From positions 1 through 6,621 of IMG/VR virus record IMGVR_UViG_2563366937_000004: DNA of 6,621 nt; one strand, given 5' to 3'. The stretch is from a virus. Its lineage: Duplodnaviria > Heunggongvirae > Uroviricota > Caudoviricetes. A program made the translations under genes and the position numbers. This document shows positions 1-6,621 of the stretch, one piece after another; the first letter of the stretch is position 1; every line of letters begins with the position of its first letter. Under the pieces are notes generated by a model. It worked only from the letters and a program-made list of their open reading frames with translations. It ran no database searches and was not told where the DNA came from.

Positions 1-760
1 ATCCGAGCCTCTCGTCAAACTGCTGGAGGAAAATGCTTATCGTGAGCTTATCTGGCGTCAGCGTGTGAATGAGGCCGCACGGGCGGTGATGCTGGCCTGT
101 GCCACCGGTAATGACCTTGATGTGATTGGTGCCAATTACAACACCACACGCCTGATTATCACCCCGGCAGATGATTCGACCCTCCCGCCGACACCGGCCG
201 TGATGGAATCTGACACCGATTATCGTCTGCGTATTCAGCAGGCGTTTGAAGGTTTAAGCGTCGCCGGGTCGGTGGGAGCCTATCAGTATCATGGTCGCAG
301 TGCCGACGGGCGTGTCGCGGATATCTCTGTCACCAGTCCGTCTCCGGCCTGTGTCACTATCTCCGTGCTGTCCCGCGAAAATAACGGTGTCGCATCCGAA
401 GACCTGCTGGCGGTGGTGCGTAACGCCCTTAATGGCGAGGACGTCAGGCCGGTGGCCGACCGCGTGACCGTGCAGTCTGCCGCCATTGTTGAATACCAGA
501 TAAACGCCACGCTGTATCTTTACCCTGGTCCCGAAAGCGAACCCATTCGCGCGGCCGCCGTGAAAAAGCTGGAAGCGTACATCACGGCACAGCACCGGCT
601 GGGGCGCGACATCCGTCTGTCTGCCATTTATGCCGCTTTGCATGTGGAAGGTGTGCAGCGTGTCGAACTGGCTGCACCGCTGGCCGACATCGTGCTCAAC
701 AGTACGCAGGCGTCTTTCTGTACCGAATACCGCGTCGTGACCGGAGGCTCGGATGAGTGA
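1..760 (+). CDS. J: Baseplate assembly protein J (gpJ-like), 5'-truncated by the window edge. The reading frame is open from position 2 through the TGA at 758-760.
   Basis: The frame containing the 65..760 ORF has no stop back to position 2, so the gene starts upstream of the window. Codon usage is GC-rich and enterobacterial. It sits immediately upstream of an I-like gene with an overlapping ATGA junction and of H, G and FI in P2 order. The call rests mainly on synteny and size, not on a search. Confidence 0.8.
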   Translation, partial: SEPLVKLLEENAYRELIWRQRVNEAARAVMLACATGNDLDVIGANYNTTRLIITPADDSTLPPTPAVMESDTDYRLRIQQAFEGLSVAGSVGAYQYHGRSADGRVADISVTSPSPACVTISVLSRENNGVASEDLLAVVRNALNGEDVRPVADRVTVQSAAIVEYQINATLYLYPGPESEPIRAAAVKKLEAYITAQHRLGRDIRLSAIYAALHVEGVQRVELAAPLADIVLNSTQASFCTEYRVVTGGSDE

Positions 761-1283
761 TTCGCGACTGCTGCCGACCGGCTCATCACCGCTTGAGGTC
801 GCCGCCGCAAAAGCCTGTGCGGAAATTGAAAAGACACCGGTCAGTATTCGTGAGCTGTGGAACCCGGACACCTGCCCGGCAAATCTGCTGCCGTGGCTGG
901 CGTGGGCGTTTTCGGTCGACAGGTGGGATGAAAAGTGGCCGGAAGCAACAAAACGCGCCGTTATCCGCGATGCCTATTTCATCCACTGTCATAAAGGCAC
1001 TATCGGCGCAATCCGGCGTGTGGTGGAGCCGCTCGGCTATCTCATTAACGTAAAGGAATGGTGGGAGACAAACGACCCGGCCGGAACCTTTCGCCTTGAT
1101 ATCGGTGTGCTGGAAAGCGGTATCACAGAGGAGATGTATCTGGAAATGGAACGGCTGATTGCCGATGCCAAACCCGCAAGTCGCCACCTTATCGGCCTGA
1201 ACATTATCCAGGACATTCCCGGCTGTCTGTATACAGGCGGTGTGGTCTGTGATGGTGATGTTATTACTGTTTATCCCGGATAA
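753..1283 (+). CDS. I: Baseplate protein I (gpI-like), 176 aa.
   Basis: ATG at 753 overlaps the J stop (ATGAGTGA), with GGAGG at 743-747 as the Shine-Dalgarno. The 176-aa length matches P2 gpI as I recall it. Its position between J and H fits the P2 gene order. Confidence 0.8.
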   Translation: MSDSRLLPTGSSPLEVAAAKACAEIEKTPVSIRELWNPDTCPANLLPWLAWAFSVDRWDEKWPEATKRAVIRDAYFIHCHKGTIGAIRRVVEPLGYLINVKEWWETNDPAGTFRLDIGVLESGITEEMYLEMERLIADAKPASRHLIGLNIIQDIPGCLYTGGVVCDGDVITVYPG

Positions 1284-1293
1284 GTGAGAAACA

Positions 1294-3912
1294 ATGAGCA
1301 CGAAATTTAAAACCGTTATCACTACTGCCGGAGCCGCAAAGCTGGCAGCCGCCACTGTCCCCGGCGGGAAAAAAGTAACCCTGTCTGCAATGGCCGTGGG
1401 TGACGGTAATGGCAAATTGCCGGTGCCGGATGCCGGTCAGACGAAACTGGTGCATGAGGTCTGGCGTCACGCCCTGAATAAAGTCAGCGTGGATAATAAG
1501 AATAAAAACTATATCGTGGCTGAACTGGTTGTACCGCCCGAAGTGGGCGGCTTCTGGATGCGTGAGCTTGGCCTGTATGACGATGCCGGAACACTGATTG
1601 CGGTCGCCAACATGGCAGAAAGCTATAAGCCTGAACTCGCTGAAGGCTCCGGGCGTGCGCAGACCTGCCGCATGGTTATTATTGTCAGTAACGTGGCGTC
1701 CGTTGAGCTGAGTATTGATGCCAGCACAGTGATGGCGACGCAGGATTACGTCGATGACAAAATCGCAGAACATGAGCAGTCCCGCCGCCATCCTGACGCC
1801 ACGCTGACAGAAAAAGGCTTTACTCAGTTAAGCAGTGCAACAAACAGCACCAGTGAGTCATTGGCGGCAACGCCAAAAGCGGTCAAGGCAGCAAATGACA
1901 ACGCAAATTCACGTCTGGCGAAAAATCAGAATGGTGCAGATATCCAGGATAAATCAGCTTTTCTGGACAATGTTGGCGTTACCAGCCTGACGTTTATGAA
2001 AAACAATGGCGAAATGCCGCTTGATGCCGACCTGAATACATTTGGTCCTGTTAAGGCTTATCTGGGGATCTGGTCTAAAGCTACCTCAACTAACGCAACA
2101 CTGGAGAAAAATTTCCCGGAAGATAATGCTGTCGGTGTGCTTGAGGTTTTTGCTGCCGGCAATTTTGCAGGTACGCAACGCTTTACCACGAGAGACGGCA
2201 ATGTATACATACGCAGACTCGCCAATAAGTGGAATGGCTCTGATGGTCCGTGGGGCATATGGCGTCACACTCAATCAGCTACCCGCCCTTTGAGTACGAC
2301 TATAGACCTGAATACGCTTGGAGCCGCCGAACATCTTGGTTTATGGCGTAACAGTAGCTCGGCTATAGCTTCATATGAACGCAATTATCCAGAGGAAGGC
2401 GGCTTTGCTCAGGGGACGCTTGAGATCCTCGAAGGCGGGAATTATGGAAGAACGCAACGTTATACCACTCGCCGTGGAAATATGTATGTCCGCTGCCTTG
2501 CGGCAAGCTGGGATGCATCAAATCCGCAGTGGGAACCGTGGTTAAGAGTCGGTCATCAGTCAGAGAGTCGTTATTACGAAGGTGATTTAAATGTTCTAAC
2601 CGACCCCGGTATTTACAGTGTTACAGGAAAGGCAACAAACGGTCCGATGCTGGACACCGTTGGCGCGACACTACTTGGGATACTGGAAGTAATCAGACGT
2701 TTTGATGGTGTGTCTGTCTGGCAGCGTTACACAACCACAGGGAAATCAGAAACCACACAGGGGCGCACTTTTGAGCGCGTCTACGCCGGGAGCAAATGGA
2801 CCGAATGGCGAGAAGTATATAACTCCTTTTCGTTGCCTCTGAATCTGGGCATCGGTGGCGCAGTGGCAAAACTATCCAGTCTGGACTGGCAGACCTACGA
2901 CTTTGTGCCGGGCAGTCTGATAACCGTTCGGCTTGATAACATGACCAACATTCCCGACGGTATGGACTGGGGCGTCATTGATGGCAACCTGATAAACATC
3001 GCAGTGGGTCCGAGTGATGATTCCGGTACGGGGCGCTCAATGCATGTATGGCGCAGCACTGTAAGTAAAGCCAACTACCGCTTTTTTATGGCGCGCATTT
3101 CAGGAAATCCGGGAAGCCGCACGATTACAGCAAGACGAGTACCAATCATTGACGAAGCCCAGACATGGGGCGCGAAACAGACATTCAGCGGTGGCCTTTC
3201 AGGTGAGCTGTCCGGCAATGCTGCTACAGCAACAAAGCTGAAAACGGCAAGGACAATTAACGGCGTAAAATTTGACGGCTCGGCAAATATTGAAGCGTTT
3301 CCGCCAGGTGTTCCGCTGCCGTGGCCATCAGATACACCACCTGCAGGCTATGCAATTATGCAAGGCCAGACGTTTGATAAAGCAGCATATCCGAAACTGG
3401 CTATTGCCTATCCTTCTGGTGTTATTCCTGATATGCGCGGCTGGACAATCAAGGGCAAACCCGCCAGTGGGCGAGCCGTATTGTCACAGGAACAGGACGG
3501 GATTAAATCACATACTCACAGTGCCAGTGCGTCAAATACGGACTTAGGAACGAAAACGACCAGTTCATTTGATTACGGCACGAAGACAGTCAGTACGTTT
3601 AACTACGGAACAAAAACCACTAATACCACTGGTAACCATACACATACCATTTACAGAGGGAATGCCAATACTAATGGTGAAACCGGTAAAACAGGCTTTG
3701 ACAACCCATCGTTTAATGGCACATCAGGAGCTGCCGGGAATCATGCCCACACGGTAGATATTGGTGCACATAATCATACTGTTGGTATTGGTGCACATTC
3801 ACACACGGTTGCTATTGGCTCACACGGGCACTCTATTACCGTTAATGCTACAGGTAATACAGAAAACACCGTCAAAAACATCGCATTTAACTATATTGTG
3901 AGGCTTGCATAA
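1294..3912 (+). CDS. H: Tail fiber protein H (gpH-like), 872 aa, mosaic: P2-type N-terminal anchor, three tandem knob-like domains, and a C-terminal His-rich receptor-binding tip of T-even gp37/gp12 type.
   Basis: The N-terminus ([20 protein letters not shown] ... [37 protein letters not shown] ... [21 protein letters not shown]) matches the conserved P2 gpH N-terminal domain from memory. The C-terminus carries GTKT repeats and HxH repeats ([35 protein letters not shown]). It is the largest ORF, sits directly upstream of a Tfa-type chaperone gene, and its stop overlaps the G start. Confidence 0.9.
2029..2823 (+). repeat. Three tandem protein-level repeats of about 80 aa inside H (about aa 246-328, 338-421 and 430-510), each starting with a DLN[TV]L motif: knob-like tail fiber domains.
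   Basis: Aligning by eye, each copy shares DLNTxG ... G(I/L)W ... N(F/Y)PE ... G(V/T)LE(V/I) ... G(T/R)TQR(F/Y)TTRxGN(V/M)Y(I/V)R ... W ... W. Copies 1 and 2 are close; copy 3 is more diverged. Confidence 0.6.
3547..3618 (+). repeat. In-frame tandem 30-bp repeat, about 2.5 copies, encoding [10 protein letters not shown] / [10 protein letters not shown] / GTKTT within the H tip.
   Basis: Direct reading: ggaacgaaaacgaccagttcatttgattac / ggcacgaagacagtcagtacgtttaactac / ggaacaaaaaccact. Confidence 0.7.
3757..3837 (+). repeat. In-frame tandem 27-bp repeat, 3 copies, encoding the His-box units DIGAHNHTV / GIGAHSHTV / [10 protein letters not shown] further diverged unit GNHAHTV lies immediately upstream.
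   Basis: Direct reading: gatattggtgcacataatcatactgtt / ggtattggtgcacattcacacacggtt / gctattggctcacacgggcactctatt. Confidence 0.75.
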
Positions 3913-4490
3913 TGGCTTTCAGAATGAGTGCAGAAGCACAAACTATCCGCGTATTTAATTTACTTGATGGAACCAATGAATTTATTGGGGAAAGTGATGC
4001 GTATATTCCACCGTATACAGGTCTGCCTGCAAACAGTACAGATATTGCGCCGCCTGATATTCCTGCTGGTTATGCAGCCGTTTTCAATGCAGATGAAATG
4101 AAATGGGAACTGATGGAAGACCATCGCGGAAAGACCGTCTATGAAACGAAAACGGGAGCAGCCATTTATATTTCTGAACTTGGCGTATTACCTCCAGACG
4201 TGACAGCTATTTCCCCGGAGGGGGATTATCAGAAATGGAACGGAAATGCGTGGGTGAATGATGAGAATGCAGAGCGTGATGCACTTGTCAGAGCGGCGGA
4301 GTCTCAGAAGAAAGAGCTGATTGCATATGCAGGTGAAATTATTGCCACGCTGCAGGATGCTGTCGATTTAGATATGGCTACCGAGGAAGAAAAGTTAAGT
4401 CTGACACACTGGAAAAAATACCGTGTGCTACTGAATCGCGTTCAGCCGGAAGATGCTCCGGATATAGAATGGCCGGAAATGCCGCGATAA
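3912..4490 (+). CDS. G: Tail fiber assembly protein / chaperone (gpG, Tfa family), 192 aa.
   Basis: ATG at 3912 overlaps the H stop (TAATG). It lies immediately downstream of the tail fiber gene. The C-terminus ([26 protein letters not shown]) resembles the conserved Tfa C-terminal motif found in P2 G, lambda Tfa and Mu U-type chaperones. Confidence 0.85.
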
Positions 4491-4504
4491 ATTGTATTAG
4501 CTCG

Positions 4505-4575
4505 GATGTGAGTTTACACATCTATAGCACAGAGTAAAACCTAATCTGGCTGTCCGCTCTGTGCTAGGAGCGGAC
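4505..4575 (+). promoter_or_regulatory. Cluster of inverted repeats just downstream of G: gatgtg-N6-cacatc (4505-4522), and a 9-bp GC-rich stem tgtccgctc / gagcggaca (4551-4559 / 4568-4576) whose left arm can alternatively pair with agcacagag (4526-4534).
   Basis: Reverse-complement matches checked by hand. No U-tract follows the GC-rich stem, so it is not a canonical intrinsic terminator. It could be an operator, an RNA structure or a weak terminator or attenuator. Confidence 0.3.
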
Positions 4576-4599
4576 ATTACCAAGTAACATGCCTTAATC

Positions 4600-4746
4600 A
4601 AAAGGAAATGGTTAATATATGCCATCATTGTTTGAAAAATACGCAGTCATATATTGCTATGAACATTGTTGGTGCATTAATTTGCTTAAGAAACTACAAT
4701 TAAGCATCATAAAACACTCTTATGACTTTTAAGGCTCTACCGTATC
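4600..4746 (+). promoter_or_regulatory. AT-rich leader upstream of the cargo operon; possible own promoter. No compelling -35/-10 pair was identified.
   Basis: A roughly 250-bp non-coding AT-rich gap separates the G stop from the first cargo ORF. Candidate hexamers (TTGAAA at 4632-4637, TACAAT at 4695-4700) exist, but their spacing is not canonical. Confidence 0.2.
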
Positions 4747-5154
4747 ATGGCTAAGCGGATTCCTGGTGTTAGTAAAGAATGGTCTAACTATCTCCTTTGT
4801 TTATTATTACATATGTCTTTACCTCTCTTACCTTTGGGGTTCGAGACACTTGTGCGTTCCGATCACTTGCCATCAATACAAACATTAAATATTACAGCGG
4901 CGTTTTATGCGATCTCGATAGGGCTTTCTTCTAAGAACGTTGCTATGTTTGGTTTGGGTATATTCGTGAGCATTTGTTTCTCTGTTGTATTTGGGATTGT
5001 TTCTTCAAATCCTAATTCTGATCCTAATCTTAATTTTAATGATAACTTGTATTTTTATTCTCCAATTGCGTGTATTGTTGCTATATTTGTTATACATGCA
5101 TGTGAACGATATAACAGGCATGTTGCTGATTGTACACCATTTTTTGAGTTTTAA
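4747..5154 (+). CDS. Hypothetical small multi-pass inner-membrane protein, 135 aa, about 4 predicted TM helices.
   Basis: A 135-aa ORF in AT-rich DNA, where random ORFs are short. Hydrophobic segments: LLCLLLHMSLPLLPLGF, ITAAFYAISIGL, VAMFGLGIFVSICFSVVFGIVS, PIACIVAIFVIHAC. The N-terminus is positively charged (AKRIPGVSKEW). The Shine-Dalgarno is weak (AAGG at 4731-4734), so the exact start is uncertain; ATG 4813 is an alternative. Confidence 0.55.
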   Translation: MAKRIPGVSKEWSNYLLCLLLHMSLPLLPLGFETLVRSDHLPSIQTLNITAAFYAISIGLSSKNVAMFGLGIFVSICFSVVFGIVSSNPNSDPNLNFNDNLYFYSPIACIVAIFVIHACERYNRHVADCTPFFEF

Positions 5155-5163
5155 GGGGGTGCT

Positions 5164-5655
5164 ATGATTGATACAATTATCCCAGTAATACTATCAATTC
5201 TCCCGGCAATACTATCTATATTTAGCTTAGTAGCTGTTTTTATAGGTGCATTAGTATCTATCAGGTCTGTTAAAAAAAGACGTGAAATAGAAGTTCAGCT
5301 TTTTAATGAGATAATAAATCAACAAATTAAACAAACTAAAAGCAACCGTAAAAAGGATCTTGAAAATAGTGTTAATGAAATAGAAAATGAACTCAAGAGA
5401 AGAGTTGATATTTTGAATAAAATGCAAAAAGATCTAGAAGCAGTTTCAGAGAACAAATACTATTTTGATAAAGCAAAATTTCTTCGAAATGTCAAGTATG
5501 GAGAGTATTTATTAGAGATAAATGAAGCTGTGAATAATATTGATAATAAAAACAAACACTTACTAAATAACGCTCTTAATCAAAGCTCTGAGATTGGAAA
5601 AGTAAGATATCTTGGAAGAATAACAAAGGAAGCACTGGAAAAAACAGTAGGCTGA
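5164..5655 (+). CDS. Hypothetical membrane-anchored coiled-coil protein, 163 aa: one N-terminal TM helix followed by a charged K/E/N-rich, probably alpha-helical domain.
   Basis: Strong Shine-Dalgarno AAGGGGG (5153-5159) sits 4 nt before ATG 5164 and overlaps the upstream gene's TAA (5152-5154), indicating translational coupling. The TM segment is IIPVILSILPAILSIFSLVAVFIGALVSI, followed by RSVKKRRE (positive-inside) and then a heptad-like charged sequence. Confidence 0.65.
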   Translation: MIDTIIPVILSILPAILSIFSLVAVFIGALVSIRSVKKRREIEVQLFNEIINQQIKQTKSNRKKDLENSVNEIENELKRRVDILNKMQKDLEAVSENKYYFDKAKFLRNVKYGEYLLEINEAVNNIDNKNKHLLNNALNQSSEIGKVRYLGRITKEALEKTVG

Positions 5656-5838
5656 TCATTTTTTCCGCTCGTAATAGATAAACTCAAAGGTTCTTTTTGA
5701 GAGCCTTTGAGTTTCAATCTTACCAATATTACTCACCATTTCTTTAGCAGCAATTTGGGGACTATAACTTCTACTTCTTGCTGTGAGTTCAACCGATGGA
5801 TACAACACATTGGCTAAAACGCCCTGTGGGTGATTCAT
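5656..5838 (-). CDS. Questionable small ORF (60 aa), convergent with the cargo operon; possible small protein or remnant.
   Basis: ORF bounded by an in-frame stop 2 codons upstream of its ATG. There is no convincing Shine-Dalgarno. Its stop abuts the stop of the 5164..5655 gene within the palindrome TGATCA (5653-5658). GC content is intermediate. No recognisable motifs. Confidence 0.2.
   Translation of the reverse strand: MNHPQGVLANVLYPSVELTARSRSYSPQIAAKEMVSNIGKIETQRLSKRTFEFIYYERKK
5682..5712 (+). terminator. Hairpin (9-bp stem actcaaagg / cctttgagt, 13-nt loop) 27 nt downstream of the cargo operon stop; weak terminator candidate.
   Basis: Reverse-complement arms verified by hand. The loop is large and the downstream T-tract is poor, so confidence is low. 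Confidence 0.25.
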
Positions 5839-5898
5839 AGTCTAGCGTTTGGACTCCGTAAATTCACAGTTGGAAACTGAGCGAGTACAAATCAAGGC

Positions 5899-5926
5899 AG
5901 GCGGGCTGATTGCCCGCCTTTTCTTT
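5899..5926 (+). terminator. Rho-independent terminator: 8-bp GC-rich stem (aggcgggc / gcccgcct), 5-nt loop (tgatt), followed by a T-tract (tttctttat).
   Basis: Arms at 5899-5906 and 5912-5919 are exact reverse complements, with a T-rich run at 5919-5930. It is positioned where the tail fiber transcription unit would be expected to end, before the FI promoter. Confidence 0.6.
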
Positions 5927-6022
5927 ATCTGTTGTTTCATCCACTGGCCAGCCAGGCCAAATAGCGTCTCATGCTCTGCACAACAGAAAATAGTTGCACC
6001 CATTAACCACGGAGTTAAACGG
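5927..6022 (+). promoter_or_regulatory. Putative late promoter and leader of the tail sheath operon, with FI Shine-Dalgarno GGAG at 6011-6014. Contains inverted repeats ctgttgt (5929-5935) / acaacag (5980-5986) and tggcc (5945-5949) / ggcca (5955-5959).
   Basis: Position between a terminator and FI start. In P2, FI heads a separate late operon activated by Ogr. I could not find an exact TGT-N12-ACA Ogr-type site, so the promoter assignment is by position only. Confidence 0.3.
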
Positions 6023-6621
6023 ATGAGTGACTATCATCACGGCGTGCAGGTGCTGGAGATTAACGACGGCACCCGCGTCATTTCCACCGTATCCACTGCC
6101 ATTGTCGGCATGGTTTGCACTGCCAGCGATGCGGATGCGGAAACCTTCCCCCTCAATAAACCGGTGCTGATTACCAATGTGCAGAGCGCAATTGCAAAGG
6201 CCGGTAAAAAAGGCACGCTGGCGGCATCGTTGCAGGCCATCGCCGACCAGTCAAAACCAGTGACTGTTGTTGTGCGCGTGGAAGACGGCACCGGCGAAGA
6301 CGAAGAAACGAAACTCGCGCAGACCGTTTCCAATATCATCGGCACCACCGACGAAAACGGTCAGTATACCGGACTGAAAGCCCTGCTGGCGGCAGAGTCG
6401 GTAACCGGTGTTAAACCGCGTATTCTCGGTGTGCCGGGACTGGACACCAAAGAGGTGGCTGTTGCACTGGCATCAGTCTGCCAGAAGCTGCGCGCTTTCG
6501 GGTATATCAGCGCATGGGGCTGTAAAACCATTTCCGAGGTGAAAGCCTACCGCCAGAATTTCAGCCAGCGTGAGCTGATGGTCATCTGGCCGGATTTCCT
6601 CGCATGGGATACGGTCACCAG
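6023..6621 (+). CDS. FI: Tail sheath protein FI (gpFI-like), 3'-truncated by the window edge.
   Basis: ATG 6023 lies 8 nt after GGAG. My own translation begins [52 protein letters not shown]..., which matches the P2 tail sheath N-terminus from memory. The frame stays open to the window end. It was not in the ORF table only because it has no stop in the window. Confidence 0.9.

Follow-up and report, generated by a model that had tools for sequence, protein, structure and literature searches.

A mosaic tail fiber gene with a P2-type anchor, tandem knob-like domains and a T4/lambda-type tip in a probable P2-like Escherichia prophage

The window analyzed here, the whole 6,621-nt stretch from the virus record IMGVR_UViG_2563366937_000004, follows the gene order found at this locus in Peduovirus, J-I-H-G-(island)-FI, in which J-I-H-G lies upstream of the sheath gene FI (Table 1). 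The gene J region is 94-100% identical at the nucleotide level to those of P2, P24A7b and YpM50, and the window shows 95% nucleotide identity to P24A7b across 87% of its length. Downstream of G is an AT-rich island of identical type in the window and in P24A7b. PADLOC gave no match for this island, and an NCBIfam search with H, G and the island ORFs gave none either. Gene H, at 872 aa, exceeds P2 gpH (669 aa) by 203 aa, close to the approximately 200 aa stated in the preliminary description of this DNA. Its landmark motifs also lie where they had been placed: a ten-residue motif at aa 191-200 (nt 1864-1893), PWP at aa 676, a 19-residue motif at aa 691 and DMRGW at aa 713. ORFs on the opposite strand within H, the longest of which has 175 aa (1264-1791), give no hint of being genes.

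Table 1. Features of the J-I-H-G locus in the window (nt positions; aa positions are those of H)
Feature	Position	Strand	Evidence and remarks
Gene J as called on the source contig	2-760		
Gene J, 3' part, baseplate	65..760	+	Pfam Baseplate_J E=1e-23; gene extends past window start
gpI, tail/baseplate protein	753..1283	+	Pfam Tail_P2_I E=1.7e-54
Gene H, whole mosaic tail fiber, 872 aa	1294..3912	+	Uninterrupted ORF
N-terminal baseplate anchor, aa 1-151	1294..1746	+	Pfam PF12571 Phage_tail_fib E=1e-57, profile positions 1-150/150
Phage_fiber_2 repeat, aa 170-211	1801..1926	+	PF03406 E=5.6e-21; conserved linker containing junction J1 (nt ~1890-1900)
Knob domain 1, aa 237-327	2002..2274	+	Repeat alignment, AF2 model, Foldseek
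Knob domain 2, aa 330-421	2281..2556	+	45% identity to knob 1; AF2 model, Foldseek
Knob domain 3, aa 424-510, more diverged	2563..2823	+	Aligns with knobs 1 and 2; pLDDT ~80
D4, ~100-aa all-beta fiber domain, uncharacterized, aa 517-616	2842..3141	+	AF2 model, homolog clusters
Conserved linker (47 residues)	3142..3291	+	Contains junction J2 at nt ~3249
Collar domain, aa 667-738	3292..3507	+	Pfam PF07484 Collar E=2e-10, aa 672-719; aligns to T4 gp37 aa 811-881
Needle/stem with six HxH, aa 739-855	3508..3858	+	2XGF match
Hypervariable tip insertion, aa 786-810	3649-3723	+	Variable block flanked by HxH motifs, seven-phage alignment
Gene G, putative lambda-type tail fiber assembly chaperone, 192 aa	3912..4490	+	Pfam Caudo_TAP E=4e-41
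Junction J3, right-hand	4467..4579	+	P2/YpM50 similarity returns at G 3' end and intergenic region

The N-terminus of H is a P2-type anchor, as had been suggested, with a full-length Phage_tail_fib domain and 85% identity to P2 gpH over aa 1-207. Beyond aa 207 no similarity to P2 gpH could be detected, so membership in the P2 gpH type is restricted to the anchor. The distal part of P2 gpH matches Mu S (5YVQ_A) at E=4e-82, whereas that of the window protein does not. At the DNA level, identity to P2 stops at nt 1899, in good agreement with an earlier estimate of about nt 1890. This junction, J1, falls in the Phage_fiber_2 linker, a motif common to P2 H, Mu S (5YVQ_A, E=9e-16) and lambda orf-401. 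The sequence from nt 1 to ~1895 would thus make up a first module, the P2 backbone with the N-terminal anchor, which is predicted to dock the fiber onto the baseplate.

Three tandem knob-like domains of about 80 aa had been proposed to follow the anchor; they are present and measure about 90 aa each. Knobs 1 and 2 align with E=4e-25 over 80 aa, and all three, together with their counterparts in P24A7b and Lv5cm, align on seven invariant columns (L, G, E, Q, T, W, W). For the AF2 model of aa 237-510 (pLDDT ~80), the best Foldseek match in the PDB was the R1 pyocin fiber 6CL5_A (E=1.2e-6, prob 1.00, 21% identity over 231 columns); the global TM-score was low, 0.19, because the monomer model leaves the arrangement between domains unfixed. 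The next matches were receptor-binding proteins of staphylococcal phages, including phi11 gp45; Buth et al. (PMC6116203) list it among knob-like proteins. No Pfam model covered the knob region or the following domain, D4, in searches up to E=10, and at the sequence level H gave no match to R-type pyocin fibers.

Although the anchor, the three knobs and the tip of the original domain inventory all stand, D4 had been overlooked. In the first AF2 run, for which the alignment held 28 close homologs, the knobs were modeled and D4 had a pLDDT below 30; once the alignment was diverse, D4 reached 84.5. Its homologs, 79 representative clusters among 1.84e9 proteins, are confined to fiber-like proteins. 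A profile search of PDB sequences with D4 returned only noise (BtuB, E=0.7), and the top Foldseek matches in the PDB by probability, 6CL5_A (prob 0.96) and 6CL6_A, were weak (E=0.16-0.24, TMq 0.37-0.45). Since hhalign found no relationship between D4 and the knob profile, we do not claim four knobs. The three pyocin-type knobs and the beta domain D4 probably form the shaft of the fiber, a second module (nt ~1900-3250) of the L-413C/YpM50 type.

Over ~215 aa, the C-terminus of H is homologous to T4 gp37 aa 812-1026. Residues 653-872 match the crystal structure of the T4 gp37 tip (2XGF) with E=3e-76 in phmmer, BLASTP of the tip against T4 gp37 gives E=4e-73, and identity is 58% to T4 gp37 aa 785-1026 and 59% to lambda orf-314. 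Six HxH motifs are found, at aa 740, 782, 817, 826, 835 and 844, and none in the first 739 aa. When 20 His residues were placed at random 20,000 times, no placement reached six HxH and the maximum was 4. All six motifs are invariant in the 7/7 phages of the tip alignment. Nothing in the HxH region points to a frameshift or a pseudogene; the ORF runs through an 11-residue C-terminal sequence typical of the family, identical in T4 gp37, to its stop. The histidine-rich, T-even-like tip with multiple HxH is thus borne out. The needle of T4 gp37 contains seven Fe sites formed by HxH, and its receptor contacts have been mapped to aa 932-959 (PMC6957217, PMC6116203). By homology with 2XGF, the six HxH per chain of H are predicted to coordinate octahedral Fe(II), forming six sites on the axis of a homotrimer that would stiffen the needle.

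The variable block of the tip is flanked by the HTHT and AGNHAH motifs and corresponds in position to the T4 tip subdomain. In this insertion, equivalent to T4 aa 932-965, 4/14 aligned residues are identical to T4, compared with 71% elsewhere in the tip. The ~25-aa block may well constitute the distal receptor-binding surface. It had been proposed that comparison of fiber tips would reveal the receptor, but matching the insertion to T4, lambda and phiNP was unsuccessful; in the seven-phage tip alignment the insertion matches only P24A7b, and for this reason the receptor is not assignable by homology. The likeliest candidates are an OmpC-type porin and/or the outer-core glucose of LPS.

The start of gene G overlaps the stop of H in the sequence TAATG. 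PF02413 covers G aa 72-192, and Caudo_TAP_N is also listed for this protein. G shares 65% identity with lambda Tfa from end to end and 28% with gp38 of T4 and of Lv5cm. Its similarity to P2 G is confined to the C-terminal ~100 aa (39% identity), the N-terminal half being unrelated. In Tfa, according to PMC9608196 citing North 2019, the fiber-binding domain is N-terminal and variable and the trimerization domain C-terminal and conserved, a layout that fits here because G and P2 G are alike in the C-terminal ~100 aa only. The variable N-terminal half of G would bind this type of tip, and the conserved C-terminal half would drive trimerization.

The tip and G had been suggested to move as one host-range cassette, and this holds: nt ~3250-4467 aligns as a single piece over the H/G boundary in STYP1, phiNP, Chlobot and JL22, the cassette also matches lambda stf-tfa over the gene boundary, and the types of tip and chaperone co-vary. 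A P2/Mu-type tip pairs with a P2/Mu-type G in P2 and YpM50, and the window, P24A7b, STYP1, phiNP and lambda combine a T4/lambda-type tip with a lambda-type Tfa. The label T-even-like applies to the cassette only in part. The homology of the tip to T4 gp37 is sound, but the cassette is closer to lambdoid Stf/Tfa, because of the much higher identity of G to lambda Tfa than to T4 gp38. We therefore regard it as lambdoid-type; this third module would be a translationally coupled host-range cassette, composed of a T4 gp37/lambda Stf-type collar, needle and tip and a lambda Tfa-type chaperone. A family of ~215-aa tips with adjoining gp38/Tfa has been published from >200 phages, as the "T4- and lambda-based RBP family" (Magaziner & Salmond 2022, PMC9659904).

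The junction near nt 1890 is real, but it is not the only one, as had been assumed; at least three are present. J2 is sharp, at nt ~3250, and lies within a ~100-nt conserved linker: nt 3150-3248 is near-identical in the window, YpM50 and P24A7b, and YpM50 diverges thereafter, the sliding identity falling from 0.93 (bin 3151-3240) to 0.38 (bin 3241-3330). The J2 linker motif occurs in two copies in Lv5cm gp37. YpM50 is ~98% identical to the window over nt 1-3240, then <50% as far as ~4470. P24A7b is ~97% identical as far as nt 1890, 50-80% from there to nt 3150 and 97-100% over nt 3150-5850. Identity to P2 returns at nt 4467, and nt 4467-4579 is 83% identical to P2 and 89% to YpM50. Of 5,426 complete E. 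coli genomes, 276 have the middle module, 116 the tip cassette and 96 the H-G segment in one contiguous piece; the middle module and the tip cassette assort independently. With few genomes compared, the direction and order of recombination cannot be inferred.

The named relatives share different parts of this architecture. P24A7b gpH/Tfa (LR595887 / NC_049390) has it throughout, with a gpH of 874 aa, an anchor ~98% identical and a tip and Tfa 98-100% identical; it differs in its knob/D4 module, only ~60% identical, the window carrying the YpM50/P24E6b allele. In the Yersinia phages L-413C and vB_YpM_50, gpH has, like that of the window, 207 P2-like N-terminal residues followed by a non-P2 middle. 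Window H is 96.6% identical to YpM50 gpH over aa 1-673 and 73% identical to L-413C gpH, but the distal part of these proteins is P2/Mu S'-type and devoid of HxH, and their G is P2-type (91% identical to P2 G). L-413C gpH has been described as a P2-like mosaic H (Garcia et al. 2008, as cited in PMC7460101). The T4 gp37 tip has the collar, needle and tip with HxH in common with H, and in both the chaperone gene lies directly downstream. It differs in having seven HxH, an unrelated insertion and a place on the gp34-37 assembly, whereas the tip of H is carried on a single-gene P2-type fiber and G belongs to the lambda/phiNP/SEN5 chaperone branch, not that of T4 gp38. Lambda Stf (orf-401/orf-314) and Tfa match the window in gene order, but the lambda tip insertion is longer and adds HxH motifs, for eight altogether, and attachment at the N-terminus is siphovirus-type; neither orf-401 nor orf-314 showed similarity to the knob/D4 region of H (aa 208-657). 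R-type pyocin fibers (PDB 6CL5 / 6CL6; Buth et al. 2018, PMC6116203) also have tandem knobs, and an HxH iron site on the fiber axis. Their order is two knobs, shaft and lectin-like foot, in contrast to the three knobs, D4 and T4-type needle of H.

Taken together, H is very probably the tail fiber of a P2-like (Peduovirus) Escherichia prophage whose modules reassort by homologous recombination at short conserved linkers; every element of the proposed mosaic that was examined was upheld. Could H instead be a colinear, vertically diverged member of one fiber family? It is colinear with P24A7b gpH over the full length (80% identity, two gaps), but its identity changes abruptly at nt ~1895 and ~3250 (98% to <50% against YpM50, ~90% to none against P2), its nearest relatives differ by segment, and P2 gpH and YpM50 gpH have Mu S-type and Mu S'-type distal parts. 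The drops at the junctions relative to P2, YpM50 and P24A7b refute a non-mosaic H, to which we give next to no credence. Another origin to be considered for the tip is direct acquisition from a T-even phage (Tequatrovirus), given that the solved structure it matches is that of T4 gp37 and that gp37 of the Tequatrovirus Lv5cm aligns with H aa 226-636 (52%) and 634-872 (68%), covering knobs, D4 and tip. The chaperone speaks against such a donor, as described above, and so does the TAATG overlap, which is identical in lambda, phiNP, STYP1 and P24A7b and missing in T4, where an intergenic spacer precedes gene 38. Moreover, the cassette DNA is 71-77% identical to lambda over both genes and matches T4 in two short tip segments only, and prophages provide a far larger donor pool, with partial cassette matches in 3,587 of the 5,426 E. 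coli genomes, annotated as prophage tail-fiber/assembly genes such as tfaQ. A T-even donor is thus very unlikely.

Which part of the mosaic fiber sets host specificity is a separate matter. It could be mainly the knob/D4 array, with the T4/lambda tip acting as a generic secondary adhesin or structural cap. In R-type pyocin fibers Knob2 varies most and determines the spectrum, and the K1F endosialidase has a sugar-binding knob-like domain (PMC6116203); phages propagated on Y. pestis, whose tip is different, also have a knob/D4 module 96% identical to that of the window. However, T4 mutagenesis places the LPS and OmpC contacts in the tip subdomain (PMC6957217), PhiNP ORF6, essentially a bare tip of 282 aa, was shown to be the receptor-binding protein of that phage (PMC9659904), and variation within the tip family concentrates in the tip insertion. 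We consider the knob/D4 array an improbable main determinant. Specificity through the knobs and through the tip are not mutually exclusive, and the knob/D4 module may also contribute, since the tips of the window and P24A7b are ~100% identical and their knob/D4 modules only ~60%. A speculative extension of the modular reading, for which we hold modest expectations, is a bivalent fiber: the knob/D4 array would bind one surface receptor and the T4/lambda-type tip another, and the two, separated as they are by the ~100-nt near-identical linker, would reassort independently among Escherichia prophages to yield combinatorial host ranges. D4 would then be an unrecognized family of receptor-binding domains of phage fibers.

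For host-range engineering, the H-G locus offers a clean natural example. The junctions at nt ~1895, ~3250 and ~4467 mark natural cut-and-paste points of P2-type fibers, and the tip must be moved together with its cognate Tfa, the N-terminal half of which matches the type of tip. Conceptually, the locus adds nothing beyond established tail fiber mosaicism: the mosaicism of P2 and L-413C gpH, the T4/lambda tip family and pyocin knob domains are known biology, and H is an ordinary mosaic tail fiber of a sort already catalogued. A protein identical to window H is present in RefSeq as WP_016235181.1, "phage tail protein", and proteins 79-97% identical over the knob module carry the NCBI name "pyocin knob domain-containing protein".

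The window is the whole of contig CABMGX010000008.1 (assembly GCA_902385855.1; 6,621 bases) and carries the tail module of a P2-like phage (Peduovirus); the closest phage is Peduovirus P24A7b, with 95% nucleotide identity across 87% of the window. The gpH-type tail fibre gene H is an uninterrupted reading frame of 872 aa, compared to 669 aa for P2 gpH, and Escherichia sp. KTE31 encodes an identical protein (RefSeq WP_016235181.1, named "phage tail protein"). A preliminary description had taken H for a P2-type anchor fused to knob-like domains and a T-even-like, His-rich tip, with the tip and the adjoining chaperone gene G as one host-range cassette. Every sequence landmark it quoted was found at its position in H, and overall it had read the protein correctly.

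Genes of the window and domains of the H protein
Feature	Window (nt)	H (aa)	Remarks
J, partial	65-760		
I	753-1283		
H	1294-3912		
P2-type anchor		1-151	PF12571, E=1e-57
Phage_fiber_2 repeat		170-211	
Three knob domains		237-510	AF2 pLDDT ~80 and Foldseek
D4	2842-3141	517-616	~100-aa all-beta fibre domain
Conserved linker		617-666	
Collar		667-738	PF07484
Needle		739-855	hypervariable insertion at 786-810
C-terminus		856-872	11-residue end identical in lambda and T4
G	3912-4490		
AT-rich two-ORF island	between G and FI		
Island ORF 1	4747-5154 (+)		135 aa, with many hydrophobic stretches; phrog_22626 (unknown function)
Island ORF 2	5164-5655 (+)		163 aa, hydrophobic N-terminus
Sheath gene FI, start only	after island		

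Sliding-window DNA identity, BLAST end-points and junction alignments place three junctions in the window, at nt ~1890-1900 (J1), ~3249 (J2) and ~4467 (J3). Upstream of J1, identity to P2 is 80-99% and ends at nt 1899, and at the same junction identity to P24A7b drops from ~97% to 50-80%. J1 itself falls within the Phage_fiber_2 repeat, a sequence that Mu S and lambda orf-401 have as well; the similarity to Mu S extends past the repeat, up to H aa 233. Identity to YpM50 is ~98% over nt 1 to ~3240 and collapses after J2, and that to P24A7b is 97-100% from about nt 3150 on. Over nt 3150-3248 the window, YpM50 and P24A7b are almost identical, and such a stretch would be a ready substrate for homologous recombination. 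At J3, similarity to P2 and YpM50 returns at the 3' end of G. From these shifts it can be deduced that the window joins a YpM50/L-413C-type knob/D4 module to a P24A7b-type tip, chaperone and island segment. According to PMC7460101, Garcia et al. (2008) described the same N-terminal 207-aa boundary, with a mosaic middle behind it, in L-413C gpH. A survey of 5,426 complete E. coli genomes gave 276 with the middle module (nt ~1900-3250), 116 with the tip cassette (H tip and G, nt ~3250-4467) and 96 with the contiguous H-G segment, counted where 80% or more of nt 1294-4490 was covered; the cassette was partly matched in 3,587. These counts indicate that the modules assort independently and are common.

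That the tip and G form one cassette is borne out by nt 3250-4490. In STYP1, phiNP, Chlobot and JL22 this stretch aligns as one piece running from H into G, and the lambda alignment also spans both genes. The stop/start overlap GCATAATGG is kept in lambda, phiNP, STYP1 and P24A7b, whereas T4 has an intergenic spacer in its place. Lambda Tfa is 65% identical to G over its full length, compared to 28% for T4 gp38, while P2 G resembles it in the C-terminal ~100 aa only (39%). The distal fibre is of the Mu S type in P2 and of the Mu S' type in YpM50, and the G of both phages is of the P2/Mu type. This pairing of G and tip types matches the two-domain Tfa model as outlined in PMC9608196 (citing North et al. 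2019), in which a variable N-terminal domain binds the fibre and a conserved C-terminal domain drives trimerisation. Both the tip-plus-chaperone family and the knob domains are already published (PMC9659904; PMC6116203). The former, the "T4- and lambda-based RBP family", pairs a tip of ~215 aa with an assembly gene next to it, occurs in >200 phages and has two chaperone branches (PMC9659904); the window belongs to the lambda/phiNP/SEN5 branch. The label "T-even-like" suits the fold of the tip, which matches T4 structure 2XGF, but probably not its source; the most fitting name for the cassette is lambdoid Stf/Tfa-type.

The His-rich tip is well founded: aa 653-872 match 2XGF, the T4 gp37 tip crystal structure, in their entirety (E=3e-76). 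All six HxH motifs of H lie within aa 740-846, with none elsewhere in the protein; with 20 histidines placed at random, six were reached in 0 of 20,000 trials. The six are invariant across the window, P24A7b, STYP1, phiNP, lambda, T4 and Lv5cm; the needle of T4 has seven such motifs, and lambda orf-314 has eight. H has one fewer than T4 because T4 bears an extra HTH where the descending strand of the H needle carries an internal duplication (SSFDYGTKT / STFNYGTKT; aa 756-778; window 3508-3650). Lambda, phiNP, STYP1 and Lv5cm share this duplication. For gp37, iron is reported to be coordinated at each HxH triad, with the receptor contacts located in the tip subdomain, aa 932-959 (PMC6957217; PMC6116203). 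T4 uses OmpC and/or LPS outer-core glucose as receptors, and phiNP LPS Glc-II (PMC9659904; PMC6957217); the aa 786-810 insertion of H matches P24A7b only and so points to no particular receptor.

The tandem repeats in the shaft are real (knob 1 against knob 2, E=4e-25), and a common motif, DLNxL...G.W...G.LEV...QRYTT...W..W, aligns all three knobs with counterparts from two other phages. The best Foldseek match of the knob model is the R1 pyocin fibre (6CL5_A, E=1.2e-6, prob 1.0), followed by staphylococcal phage receptor-binding proteins, among them phi11 gp45, which Buth et al. count as knob-like (PMC6116203). Close relatives already carry the NCBI name "pyocin knob domain-containing protein".

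The preliminary description, right about knobs and tip, overlooked the domain between them, D4. This domain, with the signature LDWQxxDFxPG...NMTNxPxG...YRxYxVRxxGxxGSRTFxVRQ, occurs in 79 representative clusters (50% identity), all of fibre-like proteins; a single protein may have two or three copies, and the anchors and tips it is partnered with are many and different. There is no Pfam model for D4, and no solved relative was found, profile search included; AF2 with a diverse alignment gives a confident all-beta fold (pLDDT 84.5). Of the features described, only D4 and the island that follows G, itself unannotated, still lie outside curated resources. Gp37 of Salmonella phage Lv5cm (Tequatrovirus; locus 2189-4975) has the same knob1-3 and D4 block, which shares 52% identity with H aa 226-636 and has the J2 linker motif, SGxLxGNAxTATKL...FDG, at either end. 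T4 gp37 is without the block, which in Lv5cm looks as if inserted as a cassette.

Homologies, junctions, co-variation and conserved motifs are direct observations here; function can be sketched from what is established for T4 gp37, lambda Stf/Tfa and Mu Tfa. On that basis, the fibre would be a homotrimer anchored by aa 1-151, with a shaft of knobs and D4 that may bind saccharides. G would fold the tip, iron at the six HxH triads would stiffen the needle, and the aa 786-810 insertion would contact the receptor.

The island (window 4590-5850) has a GC content of 26-37%, compared to ~52% in the DNA on either side. Lying between G and FI, it takes the place of P2 Z/fun and is 98-100% identical to its P24A7b counterpart. 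Neither of its ORFs has a match in Pfam, NCBIfam or PADLOC; their database names are all "hypothetical protein", and their distribution is restricted to Escherichia. P2-like phages are reported to carry anti-phage genes at two variable loci (PMC9122126); the island sits at one of these, which makes it a candidate uncharacterised exclusion or lysogenic-conversion cassette. Nt 5843-6071 share 81% identity with P2, where the matching sequence lies immediately before FI. Between the island and this homologous region sits a GC-rich hairpin (5899-5919) with an 8-bp stem and T-runs on either side, resembling a bidirectional terminator.
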